Shown here: piece by piece, positions 2,194 to 53,466 of the stretch | How positions within the stretch are numbered: the first letter of the stretch is position 1 | How the letters are laid out: the number at the start of each line of letters is the position of its first letter | Source of the DNA: Lytechinus pictus | Taxonomy: Eukaryota | Assembly: GCF_037042905.1 (NCBI RefSeq) | Contig: NC_087250.1 | Coordinates: 26,786,001 to 26,850,000 of the forward strand | Direction of reading: 5' to 3' | Length of the DNA: 64,000 nt | Translations under genes and position numbers: made by a program | Notes under the pieces: model-generated | Told to the model about the DNA's origin: nothing | What the model saw: the letters and a program-made list of their open reading frames with translations, nothing else | Databases searched by the model: none

Positions 2194-2999
2194 AATAGAC
2201 CTATTAAATTTAATATAATACAACATTAATACTCAAAGACACTAATAAATTAAATAATACTAGGTCTAGACCTAATAATAATATATGCCTATTAATAATA
2301 TTTTTTATACCATTACCAATTACAATAACAATTACATTTCTATACTATAGTATAGGCCCTAGACAATACGCATTACCATTACATTAGCATTGACTCTCTA
2401 TGCTTTAAATCAGCTGGAGTGGGCCCTACCCCTACTCCCTTGCTCAAAATTATACCCGACCCGGAACATCTTGCATTCTGTAGACTCTAGTCTCTACTTC
2501 TAGTTCTAACTTCTAGGACTAGGCCTATCATAAAAATAATACAATTGGGTCTATTATTATGTTAACAAAACAATTGAAGTGCCTTGTTCAAGTTGTTCCA
2601 CGATTTAGCCAAAAGTGTGATACAGCAACGCTGTTTCGTGTTAGGGCCGACTGTGTATACGCGTACCCCCGACCAAGTTGTCTCAGTCATCGAAGTGGGA
2701 CTGGGAGTCTACGCCTACGCAAACGGCGGTGGAGCGTACACCGCGCCGCTGTAATCGAACATCTGCGGCTTTTGGCAAACAGCACATTGTATTTTACAGT
2801 AAGTTAGACAAGTAAACATACTTTGATCAAGATCACATTCAAATCAGACACTCTCAAACATTCATCTCCATTAAAATCACGATCTTAACCGACTGCAGTG
2901 CTTGAATGGTGACGTCATGTTCAGACAGTGGCAATTTTTCAACCAAAAATCTTTAATATTTACCTAAAAGTAGCACCAACCCAAGGAGAAGTCTACCCA

Positions 3000-4225
3000 G
3001 GTAAAAAAACCAGTTGAAACCAGTTGAAATTTTAACTGGTTTCAACTGGAGTCAACTGGTACCAGTTGAAACCAATTGGCACAACTGGTAAACTCCCACC
3101 ATGCCAGTATATTCCAGTTGAAACCCATTGTCTCAACTGGACATGCTGAAAACATACAAGTTTATTCCAGTTGAAACCAATTAACTATACTGGTATAAAT
3201 TAGTACACCAGTTAATACCAGTTAAAACCAATAGGCCTTTCTGGTTTATCTACCAATAGATTCCAGTTTAAAACCCATTAGCCAAACTGGACCATTTGAT
3301 GCCAGTTGGAACCCATAGAAACCCAATGGGTGTATATACCAGTTAATGCCACCTTAAACCCATAAACCATACTGGTATATCATTAAACCAATTGATACCA
3401 GTTAGAACCAACATGCATTACTGGTATACCTACCAGTTGATTCCAGTTAAAACCCATAAACCAAACTGGATCAGAGTGTTCCAGTTGGAACCCATAGACC
3501 TCCCATAACCCCACTTGAAACCCATTAACCATACTGGAATATCAAACAAATGGATACCAGTTAGAACCAATATAGGCATTACTGGCATATCTACCAGCTG
3601 ATTCCAGTTAAAAGCCATAAACCATACTGGAGCAGATTATACCAGTTGGAACCCATAGACCTCCCATAACCCACTTGAAACCCATTAACCATACTGGAAT
3701 TTCAAACCAATTGATACCAGTTAAACCAGCATACATTACTGGTATACTACCAGTTGATTCCAGTTAAAACCCATAAACCAAACTGGAACATATTTTACCA
3801 GTTGGAACCCATAGACCTCCCATAACCCACTTGAAACCCATTAACCATACTGGAATATCAAACCAATTGATACCAGTTAAAATTCAACATACATTACTGG
3901 TATACTACCAGTTGATTCCAGTTAAAACCCATAAATCAATTAAACTGGGACATATTTTACCAGTTGGAACCCATAGACCTCCCATAACCCACTTGAAACC
4001 CATTTACCATACTGGAATATCAAACCAATTGATACCAGTTAGAACCAATAGGCATTACCAGTATATATCTACCAGCTGATTTCAGTTAAAACCCATAAAC
4101 CAAACTGGAACAGATTATACCAGTTGGAACCCATAGGCCACCCATAACCCACTTGAAACCCATTAACCATACTGGAATATCAAACCAAATGATACCAGTT
4201 AGAACCAATAGGACTTACCAGTTGA
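3000..4225. repeat. Left subterminal array, ~160-bp units rich in CCAGTT/ACTGG
   Basis: CCAGTTGGAACCCATAG recurs at about 3302, 3481, 3642, 3798, 3960 and 4120. Confidence 0.9.
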
Positions 4226-4321
4226 TTTTAGTAAGAACCTGTATATACATATATAATATATACATATATATATATGTATATTAGAGGCATAGTGGTAATG
4301 CATTGTACTTATTTCCAACAG

Positions 4322-4372
<51 letters not shown>

Positions 4373-5689
4373 AGAACTATGTTTTCATACCTTTGTTGTT
4401 TTATTTGTCGCTTCTCTTAAACTGACTTTTGAAATATTTTTGTAATTGTTGATATCTGCAGTAATCATTCAAATTTCTTATCCGACAAGTCACTGGCTCA
4501 ATATAGCTGTAACCCACTTTACATTAATATTTATATTTTTTGTACAGATCATATTACTTCAAAGTCCTCTTATCTTTGTTTTTAATTCCTTTTGAGATAA
4601 TTCTTTATGATTATCATTCATGAATGTGTTTCCTATAACTATTATTATTGTTACCATCAACAAAGCGTTACTTTTCTTTAAAAAAAGCAAGTATTATTTC
4701 ATACAATCCACTCTTTAATCTACATGTATTGTTATTCATTCAACATTGGTTAAATATATATTTATGTGAAAATGTTCATTATGTTAAAGGTATATACATT
4801 TAGCCTACTCCCAACCTTTGCCCGTTCCTGCTTTTGACATTACTCCCCCCCCCCCTGTATACTTTTCTTTTTGTATCCCCTTTCCAATATTATACATTAG
4901 TATACTTTGTTATTTTTTTGTTGCTTATTTGTTTACTGAAATTTTGCTCTGTACAAATTCATGTAATTCAGCCTTTTACCACAATAAATGCCATGCATTT
5001 ATCCATCCTATACACAGCTCGATTGAGGATAAGAGGAAAAAAATATCTACATAATAACTAACTTAATTATTCTTTATGTTAATTTTAATATTTCCACCTT
5101 GAAAAGTTTCATTAAAGTATGTGGTTCGATATTACCATATAACTTAAATCGAAACATGTTATTCTCAGTGAAATTTTCTAGTTTACATTAAAAAAATTGT
5201 TATCCTAGATATTTGTTGCGAGAAAAAAATTTCTTCCTATTTAATCCCTTTTTTCTAATTTAAGTTAAAGAGGAATATTTTACACTATTTTTACAAATCA
5301 CATAAAAATTATTGTATTTTTCTTTTTTTAACTCACTGATATTTTAAAAATATTTTTGAAGGTGAATATAATAGCTATTTTTTTCTATTTATAACGCGCA
5401 TATTTATTGCTAGTTTACAACCTTGCCATGTTAAGCAAGGCTATCTTTATCTTTCAAATAAAAAGAAAATAAATAAAATAGAAATAAAGAACAAATATTA
5501 AGCTAATTCATTCTTAAACTTTCAAAGAAAAAAAAAAGCTCCAAAAGCAGAGGCAAAAATCGTCATTTCTTGACTGGTTGCCAACCAAAACCAAACAAGA
5601 AGAAATTTGTATGTTAAGAAGTTCGTATTTCTATTTTAAAACTTCTTTCTTGCTTTAGACCCCCCCCCCCCCCTTCGTTATTCAATCAC

Positions 5690-5990
5690 CGGGCGCGGGC
5701 GGGCCTGCGCATGCGCACTGAGTGCCACTGATCGCTATCGTCGATAAATTATGCAAATTAACCAGCGCCGCCAAAATTAAACGTAAACGCAAACCGCCAA
5801 TCTAATTTGAATTTGAAAGAGCCATCTTCGCCGCGCCGTTAATTTGCACCGCACTTTTATCGAGTGCTAGTGCGATAAAGAAGGGTAAAGAAGGCCGTTT
5901 TAATAATAATTCAACCACTGAAATCACACGGACCAGATTTGGACAATGACTTGAAAGCTAAGACATTCGCAGTAGGCTCTACAGGTAAGT
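5690..5990 (+). promoter_or_regulatory. CpG-rich promoter-like segment and candidate first exon inside the 9.1-kb element
   Basis: GCGCATGCGC (NRF1-like), ATGCAAAT octamer, local CpG density, strong donor ACAG|GTAAGT at about 5984/5985. Confidence 0.4.
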
Positions 5991-6750: not shown

Positions 6751-7171
6751 ATTCAGATGTCAAGTTTTCTTTTGGGGTCTTTGTGTATCTTCTATTATGA
6801 GAATTATGGAAAAGAGATGGTGATTTAATGGTTTTAAAGATGTAAAATATGAAATTCTAGCACTTTTTTTAGGCCTAATATGAGTTCGGACACCCTACTT
6901 ATAATTTTTTTTTGAGGAGCGCGATATTTTTGTACATGACCCAAGCCTAGTTTCACCACAGATTAATTAATAGCTACACAGCTGTTGCATTTACAATTTT
7001 AATAACAATCTACAACAATTGAGCATTTTATAAAATTGAGTGTGTCTAGGAAAGCAAATTCGGAGGCATAAGGAGAGCCATTTATTGAGCTCCATGGAAT
7101 TATAAACATGAAGGACTGATCTCTGCGACATCGATTTCAGAAGTATTCCCAAGACCAAGTGAACTTACTCA

Positions 7172-8130
7172 TTTTTGTCTCACCTGCATAGCAGAGTGAG
7201 ACTATAGGCGCCGCTTTTCCGACGGCGACGGCGGCGGCGGCGTCAACACCAAATCTTAACCTGAGGTTAAGTTTTTGAAATGACAGCATAACTTAGAAAG
7301 TATATGGACCTAGTTCATGAAACTTGGCCATAAGGTTAATCAAGTATTACTGAACATCCTGCCTGAGTTTCATGTCACATGACCAAGGTCAAAGGTCATT
7401 TAGGGTCAATGAACTTAGACCATGTTGGGGGAATCAACATCAAAATCTTAACCTAAGGTTAAGTTTTTGAAATTTCATCATAACTTAGAAAATATATGGA
7501 CCTAGTTCATGAAACTTATACATAAGGTTAATCAAGTATCACTGAACATCCTGCTTGAGTTTCACATCACATGACCAAGGTCAAAGGTCATTTAGGGTCA
7601 ATGAACTTTGGCCGAATTGGGGGTATCTGTTGAATTACCATCATAACTTTGAAAGTTTATGGATCTGATTCATGAAACTTGGACATAATAGTAATCAAGT
7701 ATTACTGAACATCCTGTGCAAGTTTCAGGTCACATGATCAAGGTCAAAGGTCATTTAGGGTCAATGAACTTTGGCCAAATTGGGGTATTTGTTGAATTAC
7801 AGCCATAAATTTGAAAGTGTGTTGGTCTAGTTCATAAAACTTGGACATAATAGTAATCAAGTATTACTGAACATCCTGTGCGAGTTTCAGGTCACATGAT
7901 CAAGGTCAAAGGTCATGTAAGGTCAAAGAACTTTGGCCACGTTGGGGGTATTTGTTGAATTGCCATCATATCTCTATAAGTGTATTGGTCTAGTTCATAA
8001 AACGTGGAAATAAGAGTAACCAAGTATCACTGAACATCTTGTGCGAGTTATAGTAGTTTTCAAAATCAGCACTGCTGCTATATTGAATCGCGTGATGCAG
8101 GTGAGACGGCCAGAGGCATTCCACTTGTTT
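7172..8130 (+). mobile_element. HINE/DINE-1/pearl(Tsp)-like Helentron-associated non-autonomous element
   Basis: Subterminal inverted repeats GTCTCACCTGCAT...ATGCAGGTGAGAC, (GGC)n microsatellite, about four 160-190-bp core repeats, T-rich flanks, no TSD; near-identical inverted copy at 24593-25582. Confidence 0.75.
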
Positions 8131-8172
8131 AAATAAATATGATGATGTGCTGTTTATCATTATAGTTGAATC

Positions 8173-10076: not shown

Positions 10077-11439
10077 TTAATCCTCGGATAAAATTTTGTA
10101 TTTCATTTTTTTTTTTTTTTGCTTTGTCTTGCGTTTTTAAACATGTTCTGGGAACTGCTTTTTGAAAGTTGTCAGCATTAACAAGTTGTCTTTTTCCGAC
10201 AGTTACCATAGTAACAGTCAGAGGCCAGTGCTTCTCAGCCAATCAAAAGCAATGATTTCACTGAAATAGTCGGCACTGACGATCATGAAATACCCATCAG
10301 ATGTTAGCAGATAATGTGCAACATAGACTCCTAGATACATATATGCAAACATACATAGTCTAAGTCTTTATTATTAAAATAAATGTATAGGTATAAGGTC
10401 GAGGCAATTTCATCTCTGCGATGTCAATTTCAGAAGTATTCCCAAGACCATGTGAACTTACTATACATGTTGTAATAAAAATGATGATGTGCTGTCTATC
10501 ATTTATAATTGAATCATTGAAATATGGAACTTAGAGAAGTTTCACTATCCCATGTATTTTCTTTATGTGCAGATATAATTTTACACCACTGAAATTTTGT
10601 ATTACGGTATTCACTGTACTTATTATTTTTCATTCCATTGGTTTTTTTTTCTAATCTTCAGATACATCGCATCTACCAGCAAAGATCAAGTGCCACTACA
10701 GGAAAGGAAGGTACCTGTTTCACGTTTCCTCTTCAGAGCCAGTGAGGGCCCCAAGATCTCAATAAATAATAATTAAAAAAAGACTCCTTTATCATTCCTT
10801 TAAAAATAGTACATATTATTTATTGAAGGTAAATGCTTAGATGCATTATATTCAAATTTTGTCTCCAAGCTAGCATGTAAAAATTGGATTGACTACATAT
10901 TTACTGTGTAAGTTAATGATCTTTGTTGACACATAATACAAGAATTATACACAGCATGTTACAGTTTGTAACATAATTTTCTTTCATTAAATTCCTAGTT
11001 TAAATACCATATAGATGTTTTTTGTGACTTTTGTCATTCTCTGATGTTTTTTGGTACAGATTTCAAGAGACTGAGGGATTGATTTACCAGAGCAAGTTTA
11101 CAGTCCAATCCTGTTATATTGTGCATGTGGAAATTAACAAGGTTTCAATACAATGCTACAAATTTACCTTGATTCATTTCATCAGTCCTATGTGCAAGGA
11201 TAATTATTTCACTTGTCCATGCACATTGTTATAACAGGAGTGGACATTCAATGTAAAGATAATTGAAGATAATTTATAATTGAAATAACCGCCTGAGAGG
11301 GGGGGGGGGGGGGGTGTTGGTACCAATATTCTAATGTGTGTGTGCGCAAGGAAAACGAAGGAGTGATTATATGAGAAGAGTAAAAGATCGGGAATGTACA
11401 TATCCACATGATTCATTTTTGTTTATGCTATACATTGCA

Positions 11440-12094
11440 GGGTGTTTCTAACTGGTACCACTTGACAATTTATGTTTCCAACTGGTCCTAACTGGTGCTT
11501 TCAACTTGTTCTAACTGGCACCAGTTGACAACTGGTGTTTCCAACTGGTTTTAACTGGCACCAGTTGACAACTCATGTTTCCAACTGGTCCTAACTGGCA
11601 CCAGTTGACAATTGGTGTTTCCAACTGGTTTTAACTGGCACCAGTTGACACCTCATGTTTCCAACTGGTCCTAACTGGCACCAGTTGACAATTTGTGTTT
11701 CCAACTGGTTTTAACTGGCACCAGTTGACAACTCATGTTTCCAACTGGTCCTAACTGGCACCAGTTTACAATTGGTGTTTCCAACTGGTTTTAACTGGCA
11801 CCAGTTGACAACTCATGTTTCCAACTGGTCCTAACTGGTACCAGTTAGGACCAGTTGTCAACTGGTACCAGTTGCTAACTGGTACCAGTTAGGACCAGTT
11901 GCCAACTGGTATTTCCAACTGGTACCAGTTACAATTTGTCAACTGGATTCCAGTTGATTCCAGTATTGGAATCAACTGGAATCCAGTTGATTCCAGTATT
12001 CCAATTTCCATATTGAATCCAGTTCGCTAACTGGAATCAACTGGTACCAGTGCCAGTTGGATGAACTGGTCCTTAACTGGTTTTTTGACCTGGG
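11440..12094. repeat. Right subterminal array: alternating 40-bp A/B units forming an 80-bp higher-order repeat
   Basis: 11521-11840 is 4 x (CCAGTTGACAACTGGTGTTTCCAACTGGTTTTAACTGGCA + CCAGTTGACAACTCATGTTTCCAACTGGTCCTAACTGGCA), with minor variants. Confidence 0.95.
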
Positions 12095-22500: not shown

Positions 22501-24592
22501 ATACATTTTAATGCCAATATGAACTTTATATGGCATTGGATGGGTGAGGATGTGCCATGGCCGCATTAGTCTGCAGGCACAGACCGAATGAAACTTGTTC
22601 TAAGTGTGGCTCCAAGGAAGATACATGGTGACCATGAAACCTACTACACTGTCTCAGATGTTGTTCTGCTACACTATTCTTCTTCGCCATGGAAAATTCC
22701 AGAAGTTACAACATCTGAGATGGTACAGAGATTGAAGCTTTTTGGTCTAGAAAATGTGCAAAATATTGGCAGTGCAGAAATGAAAAAAAAAAAAAAAAGG
22801 AAGCTACATGCAAACCAACTGGATTACTAAACTCATTTGTCCATGTACTGACACCATGAAAGCATTTAGGGTTATCATAGACCTAGTGGTCAATGATGTT
22901 CGAATATGCCTTGTGAGAATTGAACTCACCCAGTACACAACAAAGAGTTTATAGCCAAATTGGTACTAAGCTAGACAGGAATAACCATCGTTTCTGGGGA
23001 TTTATTTAACAATTTCTGACATTTTACTAATAAGTGAGAGAAGCCAACGCAGTTCAGCGAAACAACCAAATACAGAGACTGATGCTTTTGGTCTAGTACT
23101 GTACTAGGCCTACCTGGGTATTTCACTTGCCTTCGGAATAGTTTTACATCACAGTGGCAACTATAAGGATAGCCCTGGCCTGTATCATATATGAAAATAA
23201 AATAAGGCATGTTAATCTCGAGAGCACCGAGGTACAAGTGTGTAAGGCATGATTATAATGTAAGTGGTATAAAATCCAAAGAACACCATGGTATGTTTTT
23301 ACAGGGCATAAAGGGTAGAATTATTAAGAACGCTATAAAAAATTATGTAGCGATAGGAATATAAGGGGATACTAGCTCTGGGCTTTTGTAATTCTGGTGA
23401 CAACTGACAAGACCACTTATCCAAAGTAAAAGGTTATGACATAAACCTAACCTTATCCTCAGTTAGTAACCCCTGTGCTGTGTGGTGATTGAAATGAATA
23501 AGTATTTATTTACTTTTTTTTTGTATGTTCTTTTGATCTAAACTGGATAAATGCTTCATTATTTGGCACAGTCCTGGTTGTAAATTCATCTTATGCCTTT
23601 GCTCCAAAATAAATTGAATTCTTGAAATTAATTTTGTTCTAATTAAAAATAAAGTTTGTGAATGTGAATATCTCACTTATCTCACTTTCCACCAAATAAT
23701 AGGCAATATATGTTTCATCTTCAAAATCTAAATTCACAAAATTGATTCTAATTCAATTGTCAAAGTTGATTATCAAATGAACGTAATTCCCAAGGATACC
23801 AATTACCTTTCTTATAACATCTTTGCATACATTTTTTGCCTGTATTTTGTCATGTTTATTTATAACTCACTGCATGTAGATCTAGATCTATTTGGTATTA
23901 TAGGTCTATCTGATCTTATTCTTAGTTAGACTTGCCTATTTAGATCTAGTAGTAATATTTTTTGCTGCTCTTTTTTGTTAATAGGGTCACATGGAAGACC
24001 ACCAAGTTAATGATATGTGCCACCCTGTGACCTGTTTAAATATCAGAAATTTAAAAAAATCAATTCTCACAGTCACAGTCCACTCACACTATTGCGAGGT
24101 TAGTATATGCTATACGGTCACAGACTCACAGTCAAACTGAAACTCGATCAGTCAAAGACAAAAGCACAAAGTAAAAAATATGCTCAAATCAATCATGTTT
24201 TTGAGCTCTCTTGTAAAAAAAAATCAAAATCAGCTAAATTTACAACGGCACAAAATCTACAATAAGAATTTAGGATATGAAACTAGTATTTATGTCACCA
24301 CATACATCTCAGTCTCACCTCTCGCTCTCCAAACGACCCGTGGGGGACCAGCAGAACCTTACATCCAGCCCGACAGTTCCGGGGAAAATTAGTGCAGCGT
24401 CCCACTCGCTACCAGCAGCAGTGAGCATTTACGGCTTGCGACGAACTCGGCTGCCATTTTTCAACTCAACGATATTTCACGTATTTTGTTATAATCTCGT
24501 ACAAATTTGATAAATTTAGGTGGTCGCTAATATATTGGTATGAATGTGCAGCGTAAAAATAAATTTCTAACGTCTATTTCCGATATAATTAT

Positions 24593-25489
24593 AAACAAGT
24601 GGAATGCCTCTGGCCGTCTCACCTGCATCACGCGATTCAATATAGCAGCAGTGCTGATTTTGAAAACTACTATAACTCGCACAAGATGTTCAGTGATACT
24701 TGGTTACTCTTATTTCCACGTTTTATGAACTAGACCAATACACTTATAGAGATATGATGGCAATTCAACAAATACCCCCAACGTGGCCAAAGTTCTTTGA
24801 CCTTACATGACCTTTGACCTTGATCATGTGACCTGAAACTCGCACAGGATGTTCAGTGATACTTGATTACTATTATGTCCAAGATTTATGAACTAGACCA
24901 ACACACTTTCAAATTTATGGCTGTAATTCAACAAATACCCCCAATTTGGCCAAAGTTCATTGACCCTAAATGACCTTTGACCTTGATCATGTGACCTGAA
25001 ACTTGCACAGGATGTTCAGTAATACTTGATTACTATTATGTCCAAGTTTCATGAATCAGATCCATAAACTTTCAAAGTTATGATGGTAATTCAACAGATA
25101 CCCCCAATTCGGCCAAAGTTCATTGACCCTAAATGACCTTTGACCTTGGTCATGTGTCGTGAAACTCATGCAGGATGTTCAGTGATACTTGATTAACCTT
25201 ATGTATAAGTTTCATGAACTAGGTCCATATATTTTCTAAGTTATGATGACATTTCAAAAACTTAACCTTAGGTTAAGATTTTGATGTTGATTCCCCCAAC
25301 ATGGTCTAAGTTCATTGACCCTAAATGACCTTTGACCTTGGTCATGTGACATGAAACTCAGGCAGGATGTTCAGTAATACTTGATTAACCTTATGGCCAA
25401 GTTTCATGAACTAGGTCCATATACTTTCTAAGTTATGCTGTCATTTCAAAAACTTAACCTCAGGTTAAGATTTGGTGTTGACGCCGCCG

Positions 25490-25526
<37 letters not shown>

Positions 25527-25582
25527 CGCCGTCGGAAAAGCGGCGCCTATAGTCTCACTCTGCTATGCAGGTGAGACAAAAA
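24593..25582 (-). mobile_element. HINE/pearl-like element, second copy (inverted)
   Basis: Reverse complement of 7172-8130 with few substitutions and a longer (GCC)n tract. Confidence 0.8.
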
Positions 25583-25697
25583 TGATTCAAAACTTTGCAC
25601 GCATTTCCAATGGTAGCAGTCGACAAAAAGGCCCGGTTGGAACTATTCGAGACCCTTCAAATTTGACCTTTGACCCCTGTTGTCGCAACCTTGTTTA

Positions 25698-26241
25698 TGT
25701 TGTAAAAATGAGAGTTGTGGTGTTAGCGATGGTGTGATGGCACGAGATACGATACAATACGATGGCGAGTGGTTAAACTTACAATTACAACACTGACAAT
25801 GGTTACGACTCACGAATACACGAATGGGTTACTGACGGTACGAAACAGTGACAACAACTAATACTTACCTGACTCTTGTACTGACGATGCCACACGGTAG
25901 ATACAGATAACAGGTTTCTTATAAGACTTCTAATAACAGACCACGGCGCCGGGTGGGGATGCAGCTGGGTTGATGCGTCCACACTCGTTGGCGTCTCGGG
26001 GTCTTCTCTCTGTGGTGTCTAGTCTGGATCTAATCTCTCAGCACCAGCTTGTGTACGTGCTGTGCAACGCACACACGTAGCAGGCGTAGGAGCATATAAA
26101 GGCTCCTCCAATCAGGAGCGCTCCTCGCATACACACAGCACATACACAGACTTAATATACATGAACATAGATCAATACATATATACTAATACACAGACTA
26201 ATACATATATGGTACTACAGGTACATGGCAAATTTACTACA
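25698..26241 (-). repeat. 3' LTR
   Basis: Preceded on the minus strand by the polypurine tract; 26016-26241 is identical to 33111-33336. Confidence 0.92.
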
Positions 26242-27250
26242 TTCCTCCCGGTTCCATCAGATTGCGACATATATTGACAAATCTATGAATTGACTATATT
26301 GTGCAATCTCAATAGAAAAATACAGATATGAAGAACTGACAGAGGAATGTAATATATGCCTATATGATTAAAACTGATTAAATACATGACATCAATAAAA
26401 TACCTCAAATACATAAAAAGCATGATCTGAGGACATAAACTTGTTTCTATAATAACTTGTTCATTTAAAAAGGTTGCTGGTCCAGCAAAATCAAATATCT
26501 TATCGCTTGAGACCAGCAAATATACACTTTGAGAAACAAGAACAAGTTAATGGTAAGTAATCCGGCCAGTCTGGCCCAGTTTTGTCTATGTATTGATAGT
26601 TGAAACAAAGAATATATTCTTATTTAGTGCAAGTCTAAAAGACTGAAAGAAGGTGTGTTCATCCTTCAAAGTGCACTTCTTTACATATAGATTGTTCAGG
26701 TTGACTCTTGGTCAGTGCTGCATATCAAGTTGTATATTGTACTATTAATAAGCATAATAATGAAATAAAGCCAATTTGGCTGGAGCTCTGTTACCAATAT
26801 ATAGGCCTGTACAATGTGACCTTTACAAATATGATATATGATTGGTAATATGTTTGAGCTCTTAAAAGCATGTAAAGTAATGATACTTCAACCAGATCTG
26901 GTGCAAATAAATATAACAACCTGGACTTGACATACATACATAGTATTTTCTCTTGAGAAAAACTACTACTATTTCAACATCCTGTATGACAATATTTCCA
27001 GGGTTGTTTATATTAGCCTTTGCAAACAAGGTAAAGGATCTATGGTTGAAATATCTATATCTTTTATGAAGTATAAAATATATACAAATATGATAAAAGA
27101 ATTATCTATTGCATAACCAGTGTTTGCACCAATTACTTCATATGTCACCTGAAGAGGTAAAAACTATTGAAAAATAAGAAGTGTGCCTTCACCTTCAGTG
27201 ACTATTAAAAGGAAATACAATGTATAACATAAATTTCAATTGCAGGACTT

Positions 27251-28795
27251 TCAGCAACTGATCAAGGAGATACTACTCCATTCTTGGGGTGGTGGCCAGG
27301 GAGGAAGGAGCCAAGGACAAGATGTAAGAAATGGGTTGTTACCTAAACTACAAACATACCTCTGGTTCCACCACAAGAAAGAACTGAGGAATTCAAGGAT
27401 AGAGAACTTAGGAGGGGTAATTCCCAAAAGTAATTGCACAAGATAACTTTGCCCATACTTGGCATCCTCAGTAGAGGCTCGACTGTCCTCTGACACAGTT
27501 ACAAGACTTGCATTATCTACACCTATATTATTTACAGTATCATCACTTACACATGTAGTATGTACAGTTACATCATCTACACATGTGGTATTTACAGTTA
27601 CTTCATCTACACTTAAGATATCTACATGTGTTATTGCTAAACGTTCTGGACAGTTCCTCTTAAAATGTCCAGATTTGTTGCATGCAAAACAAACATCACG
27701 ACAAGACACCTTGGATTCAGTGTCTTCTGTCGAAGGAGAACGTGTAGGCTCATTCAGCTCTTGAACAGCCGTGACCAATGCCTGGACTGTAGACTGTAAG
27801 GACTTCATCTGTGTCTCTAGAGATTGAAGGTTGTCGACCTTCTTCTCAATACTTGACAAACGGTCCTCCAGCCTGTCCAGACGAGAGGGCAGCTGAGCAT
27901 TAGAAGCGCGCCCGGAAACACCCATACGGTTGATTCTGGGATCCTCCTCAACAGTATCGTACGGCATTTGTCTTGCATACTTCTGCTTACACTGAAACAA
28001 CTGAACTCTGTAAATGGCTTCCTCAAGAGTCTGCGGATGTGAATTAAGAGCATATTGTCCCGCTTCATGGTCTAAGGAACCCTGGCAAAATTTATAAATG
28101 ATTTTCTTCCCAACAATCTCCTCAGGCTGTCCTTCAAATGCACGTGCGGCAAGAGATAAGACACAACGTGCCCAATCTATTTCAGATTCAGTTGTAGCCT
28201 GTTTTGACGAATTGAATATCAATTCGTCTTTAGGAGTCTCCTGGGAAACAAATCTTTGTTCAAACTTCTTGATCAAATTTGTATAGGTAATGCTTTGTTC
28301 GCGACCAAGAACTAATGCCAGAAATTCACTTGCACTTCCCTCTAAACAGTAGCAAAACTGATTGCGCTCTTGGGCTTGATCCCAACCATTTGTCTCAGAA
28401 TACAGTTGGAATTTACATAAGAAAGACTGCCAACTCCCTCTGCCATCGAAGGTCAAGAACTTGGGCAACGAGGAAACCCCCGCACCAGAAGTACTCCCAC
28501 GAGAATAAGAACTGTGGGCACCACAACCTCGATTGAAGGGGGGAGGCTTTGCACAATCATAACGGCATTTATTGGCACATTTAAGTACAAGATCTGCTAG
28601 ATGGAAATCGGATATACCATATGCCTGTGAATAATCAAACGTAGTACCAAACTCAACTACAAAATTGTCAGGATAATCTAGCTTGTATAGATTCCTTGCC
28701 AGTAAACCCTCAGTTAAGTATCTGTTTCTCGTACGAAGGTGTAAAATGTCTTCAACTAATCTTTGTTTTGCTCTAGCGATATCACTTTGCATCAT
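27251..28795 (-). CDS. gag: Retrotransposon Gag (capsid-like domain, coiled coil, CCHC zinc knuckle); first ATG at 28795
   Basis: Intact ORF with FDGRGSWQSFLCKF...NGW...LEGSASEF capsid-like motif, LDRLEDRLSSIEKKVDNL coiled coil and CFACNKSGHFKRNC knuckle. Confidence 0.9.
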   Translation of the reverse strand: MMQSDIARAKQRLVEDILHLRTRNRYLTEGLLARNLYKLDYPDNFVVEFGTTFDYSQAYGISDFHLADLVLKCANKCRYDCAKPPPFNRGCGAHSSYSRGSTSGAGVSSLPKFLTFDGRGSWQSFLCKFQLYSETNGWDQAQERNQFCYCLEGSASEFLALVLGREQSITYTNLIKKFEQRFVSQETPKDELIFNSSKQATTESEIDWARCVLSLAARAFEGQPEEIVGKKIIYKFCQGSLDHEAGQYALNSHPQTLEEAIYRVQLFQCKQKYARQMPYDTVEEDPRINRMGVSGRASNAQLPSRLDRLEDRLSSIEKKVDNLQSLETQMKSLQSTVQALVTAVQELNEPTRSPSTEDTESKVSCRDVCFACNKSGHFKRNCPERLAITHVDILSVDEVTVNTTCVDDVTVHTTCVSDDTVNNIGVDNASLVTVSEDSRASTEDAKYGQSYLVQLLLGITPPKFSILEFLSSFLWWNQRYVCSLGNNPFLTSCPWLLPPWPPPQEWSSISLISC

Positions 28796-31700
28796 TATGC
28801 ATTCCAAATAAATTCAGAAAAGTATTATTGATGATCACCCTGGTGATTCAAAGGCATACTCTTAAACATATTTATTAACTGTCATAAATCCAAATTCAAC
28901 GATCTACAGTGTATTAAACTTAACAGAATAAAACTTGCAGATCAGTGAAAGAACTTAACTACCGGTAGGTTTGATATACTTCTTTAATCCTGTGTCACTG
29001 AATACACTTACTGCCAAGGAAAGAGTGAAGTATTGCAATACTTGTACTGCTACGAACAAGCGTCTCAATAATAATAATAGATGTACACACTCCACTCCTG
29101 TAGCAATGGATATATTCAGTGAAAGTATATTTACAAATTACAGTGCAGCTTCAAGTTTCAGAGACTACACTTGTAGAATAGAATGTATCAAACTTGTACT
29201 ACTCTGAGTAATCGCAGAAGTGTCAATAAGTTTTACTTACTCTACGACTATTAAAAGAACCTAACAAGGATTCAACTTATCGAAGCCTCAACGATTTACA
29301 GGAGTAGCATTCAATAATAATTGTTTATTTCTGATGAATGCAATATATAAATGCAATATATAAATGTTTATTTCTGATGAATGCAATATATAAATGTCAA
29401 ACACACATTTATCCCACATCCAATTTTCTTTCTTTTTTTTCTTTTTTTTTAGAATGGGGATAAGTTACCAACTAAAAAATGATGAGACTACTATTTAGAA
29501 ATCAACTTGCGCAAAATGACAGCAGTGAATTTTGTACTTCACTGATGAATGGGATTCTAGAGCCTGAATAGAAATTTGCAAATTTTCAGCGCAAGAATGA
29601 TTCTCCAAAAATACAACAGAGCAAACTATTTGAACAAATTGATTTTTTTTTTGTATTTTTTTTTTCCAAAGAATGTTGATATCAAACATTTATTCTGATA
29701 TCAAAGATTGATAGTATCTGTACTTTCACTTAAAATCAGAGTAAAGAGTTGGTTTAATTAAAATAAGTATCTTCAAGAGCCTTATTAAAATTTAATTCAG
29801 TACTTCTTGTACCTTCAGTGAGATCTATCTTTCCTTAAAATCTAGAAATTAAATTTACAAGCAAGAATTATTCCAAAGAAAAATTCCTGATCTAACAATG
29901 CTTGTTAAAATTAATCAACTAAGAAAAACTGACTTTCAAACAGACACAAAGACAATCCAGGATAACCTCCAAGAAAAATTTCCTAGAAAGAACTAAGGGC
30001 CTGAAATTAAATTCCAAGTCCTCGTTCAAACAAGTTAACACCGAGTCAAAAGGCAAAGCAAAACAATTGCACTTGTTGGCTCCAGGTATACACTGTCGGG
30101 AAATTACAAACACCTGAGAGATTAAACAAGATTATCGGCTGCAAAGATTCCTAAAATCCTAAGTAATAATGGGATTTGATATCAAATTAAGACAATAGGA
30201 TTTTCTAACCTGGACTAAATTAAGTATTTTAGCGTTAGGGTTAGAAATTGAACTTCCAAGATTTTTAGTAATCTGGACAAGTGCTTATTTACTGATCCAC
30301 TAATCTAAGTAAATTAAAGATCCAAAAAGACTAACGTTAATTTTAACCTCTGTATTGTTAACGTTAAATCTGAAGGTAAGCTCAGAAGATTAATTAAATA
30401 AATTCTTTTGAGTTTCCAGTGAGACAGTCGAACTGACTGTATCTCATCAAAGATACAAAACTGCAAAGTGCTACTGCACAAACGGTCACAGGTAGTCTAG
30501 TAATATAAACTCGATGTACCGGTACGGTACCGTACCCGGTACACCAGACAAAGCTAAGCCTAACTAAGCTTGGGCCCTCGGGGAAATAAATTTAACTAGA
30601 TCTACGAAAAAGAAATATGACAATATTGAAACAAGGAATTTATCTCTGTTTGCATAAATATTGAGTCAGAAGCGATTGACAGCTAAATCCATCAAATTGT
30701 CAGTAAAAATCGACGAAATGAAAACTCGTTCAGAATTTGCCTTCACGGAGACGATAGCCGGCTCGTGAACGTTTTCCCTGCCTGGAGCTACGGGCCAGAT
30801 AGAGAGGTGCGTTGCGCTGGGGTTGGTTTGGAAACTGCGCGACGTTAGACCTAAAATTAACTAATAAAGAATGATCAAATTACAAAAACAACTTCTACGA
30901 GTTCCTGCTTGGAACTAATCTTTAGAATAAATCAACAGTCAATCGCGATAATCGTATAAAGTCAGAGTTTAGCAAATTCTAACTCTGATCGACTGTGGTG
31001 TTTACTTCAACGAGAGTCGATCTCGATCAAGTGAAAAATATAAGTCACGTGATTCGGCTCGGCAGTCTTTCGCCAAGCGAGCTAGGCGATCGAGGGTAGA
31101 TTGTACTAGTCAAAAACAATCTTGTTACTTTTTGACTTGCAATTAAATGGTAATCAAAATAAGCACATAGATTTATCAATGTGTTGATTCAATTTTAGTT
31201 CGAATCAAAACGACATATAAACATGTAACATGAAGAACATAGAGAACAATTTATCTAAGTTATCAAGAAATTAATAGCCTACCGGTTTCTCTGCAAAACT
31301 ACACAATTTCAAAAAATTATGGAGCCTACACCCAACCAGCCCAAACTACCAATTATTTGATGTGGAAGATGAAATTATTCAGACTTCTCTTTCCCAGTCC
31401 CAACGGGTCTGACACTGGTATTGACAGAAGTCTATTCACATAAATATTTCAGACGTCTATTTTTTCCAGTCCCAACGGGTCTGACACTGGAATTATTTAT
31501 AGAAGTCTATATATTCACACACAATTCTACCGAATGGGTGAACAATTAGCAACAATGAATAACAATAACTTTTAGATTGAATTTAAGACAATGACAATCA
31601 CAGTTATTACAAGAAACAATCACAATATGAGATGTGATGAATGAAATGCTTTAAGAAAATTCACAAGATGTGTATTAATTAAAACAATAATCAAGAGTAT

Positions 31701-32768
31701 ATTTTTCAAGTTACAGGTAAGATCCGAAGCTCAGAAAAACCCACCTATTTTTCTAGTAACAGGTAAGATCTGAAGTTCAGAAAAACCAACCTATAACCAA
31801 CGACACAAGTGTAATTTCGAGTTGGGTAAATGTTTGAAGTAAATTCAGATTACTAAACTCGGCAGCCAGGAGTATTAGAACTTCTAACACTCTTTCTGCC
31901 ACCCAATGTGTACAGAACTGGTTGTAAAAACACTTGCTGAATGTCGATAAAAAACATACACTGAAAATAGAAATGTATGAACAGCAACTCTACGCCCTCA
32001 AAAGATTAGTACACTGCCCAATACAAGAGTATGAAATTCTAGGAAACTTACACCATCTGGAATAATTACTGAGGATCGATAGAGGACTCAAATTTCAAGT
32101 TCAAACTTTTTCAATCCAATAAAACCACCAAATACTCACACCCGACTTTTTTTGAAGTGGTGTGGTGTGAACGTTCCGAATTCGGAAGAAATCTTAAAGA
32201 CAATGGCGGACTAAAAATATCCAAGCCTAGATGCAGATTTCAAAGAATTCACAAACAAAAGCAACGAGACGGTATAATAAAGTTACGCAAAAATATGCAA
32301 GGAACGAAATTCTTGATCGCGAGCCAAACAATAGAAGAGACTCGCGAAGAATGCGATAAGAAATGCAAGTGCAACTAAACAATGTAGGGCGTATGCACCG
32401 TGTGCATAGAGTCGACCACGTGCGTTGCAATGAAAATGCAACGCAGTGGACATGAAATAACTTCCCAGATATGGCAAATATGTATCAAAATTGACTTGTA
32501 TCAAACAAGAAATTATATCATGTACGGAAAAATGGTAAAACTAAAACAAGATGTGTGCGAGATGCATGCGAATCCACGCAATTACGGCACGCAAAATGAC
32601 AATTCTCGGTAGAGAGCGGAAAACTTTCCACTCACTCTCCGTTCGTTATACACTTCAAAATCACTCACAAATGACTTTCATGAGCAAGTATGAAGTATGA
32701 ACGGACATGAAATGATGAAAATGAAAATGACAGGCGCACAGGACGATCCGAAAACTCGCAATCGCCAA

Positions 32769-33336
32769 TGTTGTAAAAACTGTATAGGTTGATGGTGAGG
32801 GTGACTGATGTGATGGCACGAGATACGATAAGTTACGATGGCGAGTGGTTAATTATGACAAGTACAACACTGACAAGGGTTACGACTCACTAATACACAA
32901 ATGGGTTACTTCGACGGTACGGGACAGTGACAACAACTTATACTCACCTGACACTTGTACAGGCGATGCCACACGGTAGAAACAGGAACATTTATACTAA
33001 TCACAGGTTCGGTAGATACTTCTAACTTAGTTGTAGACCATGGCGCCAAGTGGGGAACAGCTGGGATGCGTGTCCACACTCGATGGCGTCTCGGGGTCTT
33101 CTCTCAGTGTTGTCTAGTCTGGATCTAATCTCTCAGCACCAGCTTGTGTACGTGCTGTGCAACGCACACACGTAGCAGGCGTAGGAGCATATAAAGGCTC
33201 CTCCAATCAGGAGCGCTCCTCGCATACACACAGCACATACACAGACTTAATATACATGAACATAGATCAATACATATATACTAATACACAGACTAATACA
33301 TATATGGTACTACAGGTACATGGCAAATTTACTACA
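32769..33336 (-). repeat. 5' LTR
   Basis: Followed on the minus strand by T-TGGCG... (PBS-like); TG/CA termini. Confidence 0.92.
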
Positions 33337-33352
33337 TTTATATAGGGCCTTG

Positions 33353-34308
33353 GGATTTTCTGAACACGCTTCAAGTCTCATCGCCCTCTCTTGGCGAGAT
33401 AGAACCAACCAATTCGAATCGGCATGGAAGCAGTGGCTTCGCTGGTGTGGTGAACAATCGATTGATCCCTTTAAATCATGCTTAGTTAATGTAATTAACT
33501 TTCTTAGTTCTGAACAAAGTCAGGGAAAATCGTATTCTACTATTAACTCATATCGCTCAGCGCTCTCTTCTGTTCTTCCTCCAATTGAAGGTTATGCTAT
33601 TGGCAAACATCCCATGGTAGTTAGGTTATTAAAGGGAATATTCAATGCTAATCCTCCTAAACCAAGGTATCAAAATACCTGGGAAGTGTCCCGAGTGTTG
33701 GATTATTTATGTTCATTGGCAGAGAATAGCCAACTTTCTTTATTTCAATTAAGTAAAAAACTTGTGTCGTTAGTGGCGCTTGTAACAGCGCAACGTATAC
33801 AGACACTCAACCATCTGGATATTTCTTTCTTGCACATTTCTGATGATCGTGCAGTTTTTCAAGTCATGGAAATCTTGAAAACCACAACTCCAAAACGGAG
33901 TATTGCAAATCAACTAGTTGAACTTCCTTCCTTTCCTTTGAATAAGAAATTGTGTGTTTTATCAACCCTCAATTAGGAATATCTTTATCGTACTAAACCG
34001 CTTCGTGAGTGTCATGGTCAATCAAAGCTCTTTATTTCTACTAAGAAACCTCACAAATCTTTATGTTCCAGTCCTTTGGCAAGATGGCTGAAATCCACTT
34101 TTTGTGCTTCGGGCATTGATACCTCAGTGTTTTCAGCTCATAGTTTCAGAAGTGCAGCTACCTCTTCTGCATACGCACATGGCGTCACATTGAAAGAAAT
34201 AATGAAGAAAGCTGACGGTCAAATGCCCGAACTTTCAAACAATTTTACCACAAACCCATCGTCGTTACAGATTCTTTTGCGTCTTCCGTTTTGGAACAAA
34301 CTTCATAA
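33353..34308 (+). pseudogene. DIRS-type tyrosine recombinase remnant
   Basis: Motifs SWR...KSYSTINSYRSALS...GKHPMVVRLLKG...PKPRY..TW, AQR (catalytic R) and AHSFRSA (HxxR). In-frame TAG at 33974-33976; a frameshift at ~34217 precedes (W)SNARTFKQFYHKPI, which carries the catalytic Y. Confidence 0.9.
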
Positions 34309-36901
34309 ATAAATGGTTTTTACCCCATGACATATCACTTTGACGTAGAGTTAAAGCTGTAATTGAATAGATTTTGTTAGTTTAAGAAGGGCGAAGTCAT
34401 TTAGTCTGTGCGTTTTCCGATCACTCATGATAATTCTACATGGGTGTGAAATGTTGTTTTTCCTTTTTTGTAAGAAAGTGTTAATTTTTCCTCCCGAGTG
34501 TTTTTTCAATCATCGATTCCTATTTATAGGGTCCCTTACCTCATTAGAATTTTAAATTACTTTGAATTTCTTTTGTGTGGTCTCTCTGCCTAGCACCTGG
34601 AAATATGCTAACCCTCTTCGACTTGTACTACATTATTACTAATAGAATTCTTATTATACTTCATGTTATTTGCATAATTTAGGAATTATATGACATATCA
34701 ATATAGATTAGTCACCCATCCACCTATTATATTAGTAGGTCCTACAAGATTAAACTAGAACAATGTCAACTAGAACAATGTTTGGCTGTAGATGGCGCTA
34801 TTTATATTACTGGTAAGGTCGGATTTGACACTTCAATTTGCCATCAGGGGCCCTATTTCATAAAATTTGTTTTAATAACAAATCAAGTTTGCGATAGCAG
34901 TTAAACGCTACTCAAATACTAAAATCTGATTGGCCGATAGCAAATTTGTTATCGAAATTATGCATTTCGCATTATGACAAGTCTATATGAAACAGGATTT
35001 ACAATTTAAATGTTCTACTCTCAAAGGGAAAAATTGACCCTGAAAATAAGTTGTTAATAAAAGCTAAACAACAGAAACAAAAAGCAATAGTTGGGATTAT
35101 TTTTTAGTTTATACACTCATATATTTCATCGATGATATGTTGTCCGATAGAAACTTCCAAAATGGATTTTTCATATTGTCACTGTTATCATTGTCATTTA
35201 CCATTATCGTCTTTCGTGTTATTGCTATTGCTGTTGGTATTATCATAGTAATGTCAGTCACAGTTTTTCATTATTGTTATAAATATAAATCAGCCATATT
35301 ATAAGTTGTTGTGGTATAATTTGTAAAACCAACTCCAGTACTGTCATCGCTCTAGCTTCTAGAAAGCAGATGTAAAGTGCAGCCATTGGAGACGAAAACT
35401 GTTGTTGAAGTTAATATTATTCCAAAGCGGTCCTTTTATATCGGTGTAATATTGATAACGATAATATCTTATTTTTCATACGTATTATATTCCCAGCTGT
35501 TATTGACTTACTGCTTTCCAAAATATGACTAATCTATAGAGACAGAAACATAGAGAGAACTGACAATCCACCTTTGAAGGTGGTTTCATTGTGATATAAT
35601 TACGATTATAAAAAGTCTGCAAAAAAGTTAAAACTGCACACGCAGAAAAGTACGCAACTTCGAACAACTTCAAAACTACAACTGTAAACAACTTTAAAGA
35701 GGTTGTACACTAATGTAACAACATTAATTGTTAAATTCATAAAAAATGAAAGAGATATGTATGTAAAGCGCAACCTCAAAACCTATTTAAACAAAACACC
35801 AAAAACAGATAAGATGGGAAAATCAATTAGTACGTACATTTATCAACGAGATAGAATCGACATCATTTGTAATTATTTTTATTTTATACAGGCTTTTCGT
35901 CGCAAATGCTTTGTCACCAACGTCATAAAGTAATATTAATGCGAGCTTATGAGCTGCAGGAAACATTTCTGCAAAGCTACTCTGTGCGACGCATTATTAC
36001 GTCAACGTATCAATATACCAATGTATTTTCACAAATAATCATAAATGCACAGATGTATTTGATTTTGATTATCGACTCCCATTGTCGTTCACGGTATACA
36101 ACATACGTGTGTTATTTATTATGAAATGGTATAACTGTAGTACACATGGTATATTTGTCTTCCAAGATGCTCCATGAATAATAATAACATAATGCACAAC
36201 TGTACATGTAAGTGCACTCAAATTGTGTCACAACATTTTTTTAAAATCAAACTCTTTAAACTTGAATACTCTAACACTGTTTTGTTGTGGATGGTACCGA
36301 TTAAAAGACATGTTCCAGTGGATGTGATTTTCTATGAAATATTTTGATCACTTTCTTCTTCTTCTTCTTCTTCATCTTGTTGATATAAAATAACTTCATG
36401 GAATTTCTTGAAAATGTCAGAAAATATCCTTTGCTCATTGCTTTTTGATACGGTACCACTAAAGTCATGAAAATAATTGAATTTTGCATTCAAAGAAAAT
36501 TAATAACCGTGATAGTGAAATAAATGTATACAAAAGTAACATGACATTATTTATAAAGAAACAAAGGATTCAAAATAGAACCCTTTTCAAGATTGCCATT
36601 CGCGCCGATATATCAATGTTATTCACAGTTTTTAATTCTTAACTCCGAACAGCTTCAAAAAAAATATATTACACTAACTGCAAAGGAAGCAAGAAAAGAC
36701 AGATACTCATGTTTACTCTAAGCTAGGATATATAAGATTGACAAGAGTTTATTGCCCCAAAATTAGAAGACGGTCCAAAAATACAGAAACATTTACAGAA
36801 AAGGTTCACAAAGAAATCACCTATAAGTGTATTAAACGCGGCTAGTTTTATAATAGCATGGTGTTACTCTAAATGAACTTCAATGTATTCTTTGTATCTT
36901 A

Positions 36902-37758
36902 AGGCCACCGCACACCTTACGACCCGACTGGTCGGCGACTGGCTTGCGACTGAGAGAGGGGATCCGGAGATGAATCGCAATTAAAGGCCACCGCACACCT
37001 TACGACCCGACCAGTCGCCGACTGGCTTGCGACTGGGTGAGGGGAGATGTGACGTCACAGCGCATGTCAGCTTCAGAGTCGCAGACCGGTCAGAGACAAG
37101 TCGCAAGGAAAATCGGAAGGATTTGACATGTCGAATCCTTATGACTGGATCGCAAGCTCAATCCAAATTCCAGCCAATCAGACAGCAGAGTTGCACGACG
37201 CGTATATGATAAACAACGCGCATACGCAGTAGTAAACGCATTCTCTTTGTTGTTATGCCAAAAAGCAAAAAGCGCATGCGTGAGTCGCAAATCGGATCGC
37301 AAGGTGTGCGGTGTCGTGGCTTATGACTACCTTGCGATTCATCTCCCCTCTCTCAGTCGCAAGCCAGTCGCCGACCAGTCGGGTCGTAAGGTGTGCGGTG
37401 GCCTTAAGGCAGTCATAAGCCTCGACACCGCACACCTTGCGATCCGATCTGCGACTCACGCATGCGCTTTTTGCTTTTTGGCATAGCATGCAACTGAGAA
37501 AGTGCACTTACTACTGCGTATGCGCGTTGTTTATCATAATACGCATCGTGCAACTCTGCTGTGTGATTGGCTGGAAGTTGGATTGAGCTTGCGATCCAGT
37601 CATAAGGATTCGACAGGTCAAATCCTTCCGATTTTCCTTGCGACTTGTCTCTGACCGGTCTGCGACTCGAAGCTGACAAGAGCTGTGACGTCACATCTCC
37701 CCTCACCCAGTCGCAAGCCAGTCGGCGACTGGTCGGGTCGTAAGGTGTGCGGTGGCCT
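36902..37758. mobile_element. PIF/Harbinger-like MITE copy A, interrupted by copy B
   Basis: TIR AGGCCACCGCACACCTTACGACCCGAC; TTA at 36899-36901 and 37759-37761. Confidence 0.85.
36985..37404. mobile_element. Same MITE family, copy B, nested in A in the opposite orientation
   Basis: TAA TSD at 36982-36984 and 37405-37407; body is the reverse complement of copy C. Confidence 0.85.
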
Positions 37759-37850
37759 TTAGGTCCGACGTACATAAATTTTTTTTCACTTAAAATATAT
37801 CTTTAGTTTACATTTTTACACAGGTCGAACAGAAAGGCTAAGTATGGTAA

Positions 37851-38273
37851 AGGCCAACGCACACCTTACGACCCGACCGGTCGCCGACTGGCTTGCGACT
37901 CAGTGAGGGGAGATGAATCGCAAGGCAGTCATAAGCCTCGACACCGCACACCTTGCGATCCGATCTGCGACTCACGCATGCGCTTTTTGCTTTTTGGCAT
38001 AGCATCTGAGAAATTGCGCTCAATACTGCGTATGCGCGTTGTTTATCATAATACGCGTTATATGCAACTCTGCTGTCTGATTGGCTGGAGGTTGGATTGA
38101 GCTTGCGATCCAGTCATAAGGATTCGACATGTCAAATCCTTCCGATTTTCCTTGCGACTTGTCTCTGACCGGTCTGCGACGCTCAAGCTGGCAAGAGCTA
38201 TGACGTCACATCTCGCCTCACCCAGTCGCAAGCCAGTCGGCGACTGGTCGGGTCGTAAGGTGTGCGGTGGCCT
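37851..38273. mobile_element. Same MITE family, copy C (uninterrupted)
   Basis: TAA TSD at 37848-37850 and 38274-38276. Confidence 0.85.
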
Positions 38274-39409
38274 TAAGTTCCCCCATGTCTGCGCGGTCTC
38301 CCAAGTCTGCGCACCCGCGTATCTGGGCGATTCTAGTAAAAGAGGATACGCAACGAGCACGAACTTTACACATGCAATACATAGACAGGTATTCATAAAA
38401 AAATCCGACTCAAAATGGTGGAAAAATAATGAATTCAGGGAATTTCATGTGACGGCCTCAAAATGCAGCCTTTGTCATCAAAATCCCTGAATCGTGTGCA
38501 AAGTGAATGAGTGCGCAGACATGGGGTACCATTTTTTCTTCAATCTGAAAACGACTGCCCAAAGGTTTTTCAAGAAAATCTTATATTTTCTTTCATTTTT
38601 TAATGAGAAATTTGGTACACTTACTCTTAATAATGTAAGGAATACTATTAACCAAAAGATTTTGTGAAATAAGAAAAAATTCATGATAAATCTTAACTCA
38701 AACTGTTAGGTGCGCAGACTTGGGGCCCACCATCATACGTGATAATAATATAGATACATGGTAATTGCTCAGTTTAATATAATATATACATGTACATCGC
38801 TATATTTGATTTTGATAGTCGATTTAGCTTTGGCATACAAACATGACAATTAAGAGTCTACACATCATTAAATATTCATGTCCGGTACATTAATATGAAT
38901 ATACCGTCATACAGCATGATATATTTACACGTCCGCATGTGTCTGCGTACAAATTATCCTACAGTCAAACCAATCGAGGTGTTTTTTTTTTTCAATATGC
39001 TTCCAGTGCTAATTCATACTATTCAGATTTCATACTTTACAGATTTGATACAATACACGATAATAATTGTTTTTCAATATTAATACATGGTGGTCATATC
39101 AACCATGTATGCACCCTATGGTAACAATAAAGAACTAAAAACAAACAGGAATATTATACACATTCACACCTTATTCACCTATTAAAAGAAAAAGCTAAAA
39201 AAAAAATGTTTCCATACAAATACATTGTGCACAACTTCACCTGATCTACGATATTAGCCTTGTGCTTATTTCTTAAAGGATGATACATTTCTCAATTCCC
39301 TTTTGAGTGATACAAACCGTTCCTTAAGATATTAGATTATATATTTAATATTTTACTACCATAAAAGACAGTGTCCAAGTTTAATGAAAGAGGATCTCAG
39401 CTACATGTC

Positions 39410-52629: not shown

Positions 52630-53466
<837 letters not shown>

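Follow-up and report, generated by a model that had tools for sequence, protein, structure and literature searches.

Why would a retroelement that lacks pol keep an open gag gene that appears to be under selection? The question is raised by a stretch of 64,000 nucleotides from the sea urchin Lytechinus pictus, a laboratory embryo model (RefSeq assembly GCF_037042905.1, contig NC_087250.1, positions 26,786,001 to 26,850,000; hereafter the window, in whose coordinates all features are given). It contains a long terminal repeat (LTR) element of the Ty3/Gypsy type on the minus strand, running from 33336 to 25698 with a length of 7,639 bp. A sequence-only reading of the locus had proposed an LTR element that carries gag alone and depends on a helper; our analysis supports that proposal, and places the element in a family. 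The element has the anatomy of an LTR element and a Gag with a capsid fold, pol was undetected by Pfam and tblastn, pol-less junctions were recovered, and family pieces cover the whole internal region. We consider it likely, at a probability of about 0.72, that the element is one copy of an old, many-copy gag-only Ty3/Gypsy family that would be mobilised by the enzymes of a pol-bearing relative. Gag-only LTR parasites are already known in plants, zebrafish, and chicken; to these the locus adds a Ty3/Gypsy and echinoderm case. Further interest comes from a Gag that is remodelled yet apparently selected, from capsid divergence between copies, and from split LTRs.

Anatomy of the element and the search for pol

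The 5′ LTR (32769..33336, 568 nt) and the 3′ LTR (25698..26241, 544 nt) both have TG..CA ends. The first 226 nt of the 5′ LTR (33111..33336) are identical to 26241-26016 and likely comprise U3 and the start of R, the U3/R boundary being placed by inference from a TATA-like site at LTR position 144, which follows an ATTGG motif at position 130. The last ~320 nt of the 3′ LTR are of another R-U5 variant than the 5′ LTR. A putative tRNA-type primer-binding site (PBS; 32756..32767) begins with TGG one base inside the 5′ LTR. Compared by eye with the echinoderm tRNA ends in PMC13524379 (supplement file 4), it fits best the sea-star 3′ end of tRNA-Arg(UCG), with 11/12 positions paired, and next best tRNA-Ser(GCU), with 10/12 paired, G:U pairs being included in both counts. 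No tRNA genes were found in the 64-kb window. Tf1-like self-priming was rejected as a candidate: its best duplex (-16.3 kcal/mol), near the LTR end, was matched by 32 of 200 shuffles. A polypurine tract (PPT; 26242..26255), with 12/14 purines, adjoins the 3′ LTR. The element is bordered by TTTA on both sides (25694..25697 and 33337..33340, plus strand), the halves of a putative 4-bp target-site duplication (TSD) of uncertain status. Of the complete set of cis signals claimed from the sequence, the LTRs, PBS, and PPT hold up; a clean single insertion does not, as the LTR halves differ, the flanks look unrelated, and the TSD is unconfirmed.

The non-coding leader (28796..32755) is about 4 kb long, contains short internal repeats, and is common to other family members. 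Counted from 28796 to 32768 it measures 3,973 nt, in agreement with the earlier estimate of ~4 kb, and holds 25 ATGs. Rfam gave no matches within 25500-33500. A splice-donor-like AG|GTRAGT occurs at position 388 of the 5′ LTR, a donor-like motif is kept in both LTR variants, and the leader offers seven acceptor-like sites possible for it. No spliced joint from the LTR donor to the leader was found among the joints listed for the sequencing runs described below (15 of 20). Given the 25 upstream ATGs and the donor-like motif, gag may perhaps be translated from a spliced RNA.

From the gag stop to the PPT there is only ~1 kb, a non-coding region (26256..27250) that lies where pol would be expected and is present in other copies. 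No Pfam family of protease, reverse transcriptase (RT), RNase H, or integrase was matched at E ≤ 1 in any of the 12 read-through frames of the leader and this 3′ region, and the sole Pfam match in these frames was to an unrelated pilin (E = 0.01). As a positive control, Pfam read-through recovered a protease in 3/6 relatives. A tblastn comparison of the element with 160 relatives, of which five reach into protease, gave no match outside gag better than E = 0.04. Remnants of RT, RNase H, and integrase were judged by Pfam alone, the tblastn queries being without those sequences from the clade. Neither Pfam nor tblastn detected degenerate pol, which bears out the earlier statement that no recognisable pol remnant lies in the leader or the 3′ region.

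The sole long open reading frame (ORF) of the element is gag (27251..28795), which is uninterrupted over 514 aa; an open frame of this length is expected by chance at ~1e-14. It is a capsid gene of the Ty3/Gypsy type with a CCHC knuckle, so that the intact Gag of ~514 aa noticed at first sight is confirmed by chance expectation, knuckle, and capsid fold alike. The capsid domain (27968..28474, about aa 108-276) has a Ty3/Gypsy-derived fold in the predicted structure, whose predicted local distance difference test (pLDDT) scores are 93-98 in most 10-residue blocks. The top Foldseek rows for this model included PNMA2 (E = 1.7e-4), dArc1 (E = 5e-4), Arc, and Ty3. A HMMER scan with Gag residues 1-400 returned 2,477 relatives at E ≤ 0.001, the named ones from bivalves, and the relatives of Gag bear the Retrotrans_gag, PNMA, and gag-asp_proteas families. 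The structure model further predicts a long helix or coiled coil (27752..27892, aa 302-348). The CCHC zinc knuckle (27650..27691, aa 369-382) matches PF00098 above the Pfam cut-off, and is followed by a tail of 132 aa (27254..27649), in which a repeat of 30 bp and a stretch of mild hydrophobicity occur.

Both ends of Gag are remodelled, the N-terminal helix-hairpin-helix (HhH) having decayed and a tail of 132 aa standing in place of the usual ~30 aa. The HhH remnant (28694..28762, Gag residues 12-34) is without the hairpin motif, and the trace is weak (4.5 bits, E = 0.002, equalled in 3/1000 shuffles). An HhH motif was found at the N-terminus of 31/149 relatives, many of which are fragments. 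Its trace at the start of Gag implies that the gag ATG is the homologous start and that the 4 kb upstream is leader; no separate broken HhH exon was found in the leader, where no trace equalled that in Gag. Of 110 knuckle-bearing relatives, 106 have at most 52 aa beyond the knuckle (median 30), and 3 continue into protease. No homologue of the 132-aa tail was found outside the family; the ESM Atlas was empty for the tail and gave no match at ≥0.9 for the N-terminus, although a blank there is uninformative. A word-index protein search with Gag gave two matches of near length, two longer, and none shorter. The two longer ones share 24% identity with Gag, with E values between about 1e-5 and 1e-6, and their C-termini look protease-like, with a Pfam protease in one. 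In a quick tree of capsid cores (78 of 81 rows; P0110, P0135, and P0145 were left out as too short), the branch of Gag measures 1.13 against a median of 0.45, and the four nearest rows carry the HhH motif; its exact placement is unsupported.

Family pieces, apparent selection, and RNA

Two close protein matches, both in nr and both from Lytechinus pictus, were obtained. P0001 is 99% identical over 409 columns, with one residue off near the end and a frame difference near the start, and could represent a further copy, an allele, or this locus in an older assembly. P0002 (XP_054750202.1) aligns with the knuckle and tail over 212 columns, 71% of them identical. As a gene model, P0002 fuses the family's Gag knuckle and tail to a host protein resembling G-patch domain 4. 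The two parts meet within the tail at a donor-like AG|GTATGT, at about window position 27356, and the fusion could be either a genuine chimeric transcript or an artefact of annotation.

Four public runs were aligned to 25560-33110 at 80% likeness and in 30 bins. X21 is raw RNA, whereas the kinds of X1, X9, and X12 are guessed; X21 and X1 carry organism label A, X9 label B, and X12 label C. Depth in these runs gives no copy number, the pieces are unphased contigs, and the listings comprise the best 24 of 233 loose-end rows, the best 40 of 863 variant rows (ranked by support), and 15 of 20 joints. Depth was present in 26 of the 30 bins for X21, 30 for X1, 29 for X9, and 29 for X12, and related pieces occupied 16/16 leader bins in X1 and 15/16 in X12. 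The depth of X12 ranged from 113 to 904 in those 15 leader bins, from 82 to 1107 over gag, from 302 to 575 over the four 3′ non-coding bins, and from 651 to 5842 over the LTR bins. Family pieces therefore span the leader, gag, and the 3′ non-coding kilobase under three organism labels. A separate observation concerns 30348-30599, the only leader bin at zero depth in X12 and X21, yet covered in X1 and X9. It contains a short palindrome near 30515-30543 and is possibly a lineage-specific insert.

The listed pieces cross the places at which pol might have been joined. The gag stop is bridged without pol by X9 record 16, which covers 26971-27323 with 16 other letters and three gaps, and 26287-27323 is tiled by listed X12 and X9 pieces save for a gap at 26770-26803. 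The knuckle end is likewise bridged without pol by an X12 contig that extends 56 letters on each side of 27674. At least two types of gag are represented. One is near-identical to that of the element (X1 record 3, at a depth of 5.5, differs at 3 of 815 letters; X9 record 18 at 0 of 220). In the second, deeper type (X1 record 2, at a depth of 58, and X9 record 17), 310 letters replace 307 of the capsid, and further 3′ X1 record 2 is 83% identical to the element. As the second type shares the tail and the 3′ part, the gag-plus-tail layout likely predates the split of the gag types. Non-coding pieces are ~92-97% alike (X1 record 7; X9 records 16 and 19; X12 records 8 and 10), so that copies diverge more in the capsid than in the non-coding backbone. 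This contrast, drawn from unphased pieces, suggests either an exchange of gag modules or fast evolution of the capsid. Together with the presence of two R-U5 variants behind one U3, it points to recombination within the family.

Variants in gag appear to be constrained. Among the best 40 of the 863 variant rows, ten fall in gag, of which seven are synonymous, against an expected share of 0.28 (p = 0.007), and eight are at third positions. Within the tail, the listed variants are 3/5 synonymous and 4/5 third-position. From this small sample we infer purifying selection on gag. Family RNA is present at a low level and with a strand bias in the one raw-read run: 180 of the 8.7 million X21 records align to the element, and first-mate depth is 66 on the plus strand and 18 on the minus strand, which under the usual stranded protocol is sense to gag.

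Split LTRs and the flanking DNA

The LTRs of this copy are divided into two parts of very different divergence, a feature that the sequence-only reading had overlooked, as it had the mismatched flanks and the altered ends of Gag. Their alignment has no mismatches in the first 226 columns, but 34 mismatches and 16 gap events in the other 310 (11% divergent), and under uniform divergence the switch at position 227 has p = 4e-9. The two R-U5 halves of the element belong to different variants. At 26184 both U3 blocks have T, whereas the whole of the X1 and X12 depth has G there, which implies that both blocks came from one recent template. The age of the insertion was rejected as the cause of the divergence, since an equally aged ORF stays open in only 30/2000 simulations (indels ignored). 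Dating of this copy by LTR identity would make it brand-new or very old, depending on the half that is compared.

The two flanks also look unrelated. On the left is a deep-coverage non-coding repeat, 9/9 frames of which are without a Pfam match. On the right, the flank starts within an ORF for a tyrosine recombinase (33338-34312, plus strand; PF00589, E = 4e-5), which has one internal stop and begins at the LTR edge. By its motifs we take this recombinase to be of the DIRS type, and a short overlapping frame at 33338-34312 resembles the C-terminus of a DIRS pol. The DIRS label also leans on the layout given in PMC3266345. No relatives of the recombinase were found in contig scans. With LTRs that are identical for 226 nt and then 11% divergent, and with flanks that seem to have nothing in common, this copy is a mosaic that arose in the course of insertion, later, or in assembly. 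In the model of PMC6894440, two RNAs packaged together and reverse-transcribed yield LTRs that are mosaic yet identical, and some other event must therefore lie behind the split.

We see about an even chance that the locus is not one insertion at all, and that one copy's 5′ LTR and interior became attached to another copy's R-U5 end and flanking DNA, through ectopic recombination or mis-assembly, the TTTA match being coincidental. The jump in divergence from 0 to 11% at position 227, the failure of age as a cause, and the contrast between a recombinase ORF on one side and a flank without any Pfam match on the other all favour such a join. By the model cited above, ordinary reverse transcription makes the two LTRs alike even when two different RNAs serve as template, and two-LTR elements without a TSD that arose from inter-element recombination have been described (PMC4079214). 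Less easily accommodated is the TTTA match, expected by chance at only 0.6-0.9% without target preference, and the scans gave no recombinase relatives by which the left limit of that element might be placed.

It is also conceivable, and we hold this more tentatively, that a single insertion with a real TSD took place. The 5′ R-U5 would then have been overwritten later by another subfamily, or a mismatched LTR would have formed from two co-packaged RNAs at second-strand transfer. A single insertion would account for TTTA on both sides and for the one recent template behind the two U3 blocks, and the identical block stops about 50 nt past the inferred transcription start. In addition, X1 and X12 contigs join both R-U5 variants in 5 of the 15 listed joints, although ordinary intermediate sequences could well give such joints at a threshold of 80% likeness. 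The unrelated look of the flanks speaks against it, as does the prediction of identical LTRs in the model of PMC6894440, and the heteroduplex route is our own proposal. If that route is the true one, the mismatched LTR would bear direct witness to two RNAs having been packaged together. Both histories concern this locus alone, and a join of two copies is compatible with a gag-only family.

Several other features were observed in the window. Two inverted copies, 97-100% identical, of a non-coding element about 1 kb long that has 163/192-bp repeats within it lie at about 24583-25585 and 7169-8140. The former interrupts the repeat that forms the left flank, and reads without this copy run from 25578 into sequence like 24563-24593. 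A spliced Arf-family GTPase gene, presumably ARF6-like by its motifs, occupies 60418-48900 on the minus strand, with exons near 60418, 53391, 51400, and 48978. Its stop is ~15 kb from the LTR element, which lies outside the gene. At 36898-38281 there are GC-rich nested direct and inverted repeats of foldback-like appearance, with arms of 68-217 nt that are 92-100% alike. Related tandem arrays with 160-bp and 40-bp units at 3046-4225 and 11416-11895 carry a CCAGTTG-type motif on opposite strands, and a long degenerate CAT/CAC microsatellite at 52641-53312 gives rise to spurious His-rich ORFs.

Retention of Gag and comparison with known systems

If the element does belong to a mobilised gag-only family, transcription would begin from the U3 and be followed by tRNA priming. 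Family RNA would be packaged, and then reverse-transcribed and integrated by the enzymes of a pol-bearing relative; RT and integrase are needed in trans because the element encodes none. The Pol of Gypsy elements is generally brought into particles as part of Gag-Pol. A satellite Gag could consequently aid its own RNA only by co-assembly with helper proteins, and co-assembly with the Gag-Pol of the helper would be the simplest reason for keeping Gag.

A number of observations weigh against a mobilised gag-only family. Neither a second full-length copy nor a helper was found when the single Gag, a four-row alignment, and a 22-nt LTR motif were searched against viral, metagenome, and prokaryote contigs, and pol-bearing branches may hide beyond the best 24 of the 233 loose-end rows. 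The near-identical gags (P0001 and X1 record 3) could be alleles of the same locus. The family pieces are unphased, their depth is not copy number, and the kinds of three of the runs are guesses. The ten gag variants are a support-ranked subset, and at least 99% likeness to this copy was seen in only 16/180 X21 records. Finally, with a Gag whose branch is long (1.13 vs 0.45) and whose ends are altered, co-assembly with a helper is not assured.

That Gag is kept for another role seems unlikely. It might act as a dominant-negative brake on the helper, or as a host-used protein, as in zebrafish, where the Gag of Bik-1 is needed for development (PMC12067270). The remodelling of both Gag ends, the long capsid branch, and the mostly synonymous, third-position variants in the tail would fit a role of this kind. 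On the other hand, the PBS, PPT, and LTR signals are kept in what looks like a multi-copy family, as would be expected of a selfish satellite, and RNA is low in the single raw-read run. A more elaborate scenario, which we regard as distinctly unlikely, is a long-lived echinoderm satellite whose re-engineered Gag, without the HhH hairpin and with a new, conserved tail, swaps capsid modules on a shared backbone, hijacks or throttles its helper by co-assembly, and is perhaps used by the embryo as Bik-1 is, the split LTRs then recording two RNAs in one particle. An ordinary gag-pol element with a unique post-insertion deletion is very improbable: its relatives are ordinary Gypsy Gags, 3/110 of which read into protease, and no second full-length copy was found, but the same tail and 3′ region recur in a second gag type of 71% identity and under three organism labels.

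The literature searched contained no description of an echinoderm gag-only Gypsy family, nor of a Gypsy Gag with an HhH; the search did not extend to Repbase or to most subscription journals, and such a family may be catalogued already. The comparisons that follow are by description. The sequence-only reading had pointed to the TR-GAG elements and had regarded the type as described mainly in plants, a view that is not supported. The element works in the manner of TR-GAG without being one. TR-GAG elements have LTRs, a PBS, a PPT, and one GAG ORF without protease, RT, RNase H, or integrase, as the sea urchin element does, but they are defined from plants as being at most 4 kb long with a 5-bp TSD (PMC4350172). 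At 7,639 bp, with a 4-kb leader and at best a 4-bp match beside it, the element falls outside that definition in both size and TSD. TR-GAG further calls for at least two copies in a genome; the other material of this family consists of P0002 and contig pieces, none of them a full-length copy. It is long enough for the LARD class (>4 kb, without an internal coding region), but has an open gag (PMC4350172).

Ty3/Gypsy elements (Metaviridae) have TG..CA termini and a 4-6-bp TSD; the element agrees with them in its termini, with only the 4-bp TTTA match, possibly due to chance, beside these. It is assigned to the group by its Gag, since for the pol order PR-RT-RH-IN and the RT phylogeny a pol-less element offers no material. 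The mammalian MaLR elements, which have a gag-derived ORF, are related to ERV-L, unlike the element. Culex CM-gag may be a further helper-dependent case. Non-autonomous Troyka elements of sea urchins (PMC12440569) and the non-autonomous MaLR (PMC6466679) are, like the element, helper-dependent animal retroelements, and some elements of this kind keep one ORF; in Troyka, unlike here, the termini are CG..CG and the TSD is 3 bp (PMC12440569).

Gag-only elements of animals include zebrafish Bik-1, with 22 proviral copies, seven of which have an intact Gag and none pol; Bik-2, which is described as encoding gag and neither pol nor env; and chicken ENS-1/ERNI, a non-autonomous gag-coding variant (PMC12067270). 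In common with the present element, BHIKHARI (Bik-1/2) and ENS-1 make up LTR families of animals that have one gag ORF, lack pol, and need a partner; that of Bik-1 is unidentified in the source (PMC12067270). They are endogenous retroviruses (relatives of lokiretroviruses; a sister group of ERV-L), whereas the element's Gag has a CCHC knuckle and bivalve Ty3/Gypsy relatives. Recent activity is described for Bik-1 as well as Bik-2, and for Bik both mobility and a host role have been demonstrated (PMC12067270), whereas the element is known here from its sequence. A marine-invertebrate Ty3/Gypsy clade with an N-terminal HhH (P0005-P0153; Saccostrea, Mytilus, and Mercenaria) differs from the element, which has an HhH remnant without hairpin, a 132-aa tail in place of a short conserved C-terminal end, and no pol downstream, but shares with it the same layout of capsid, coiled coil, and knuckle at 30-40% identity.

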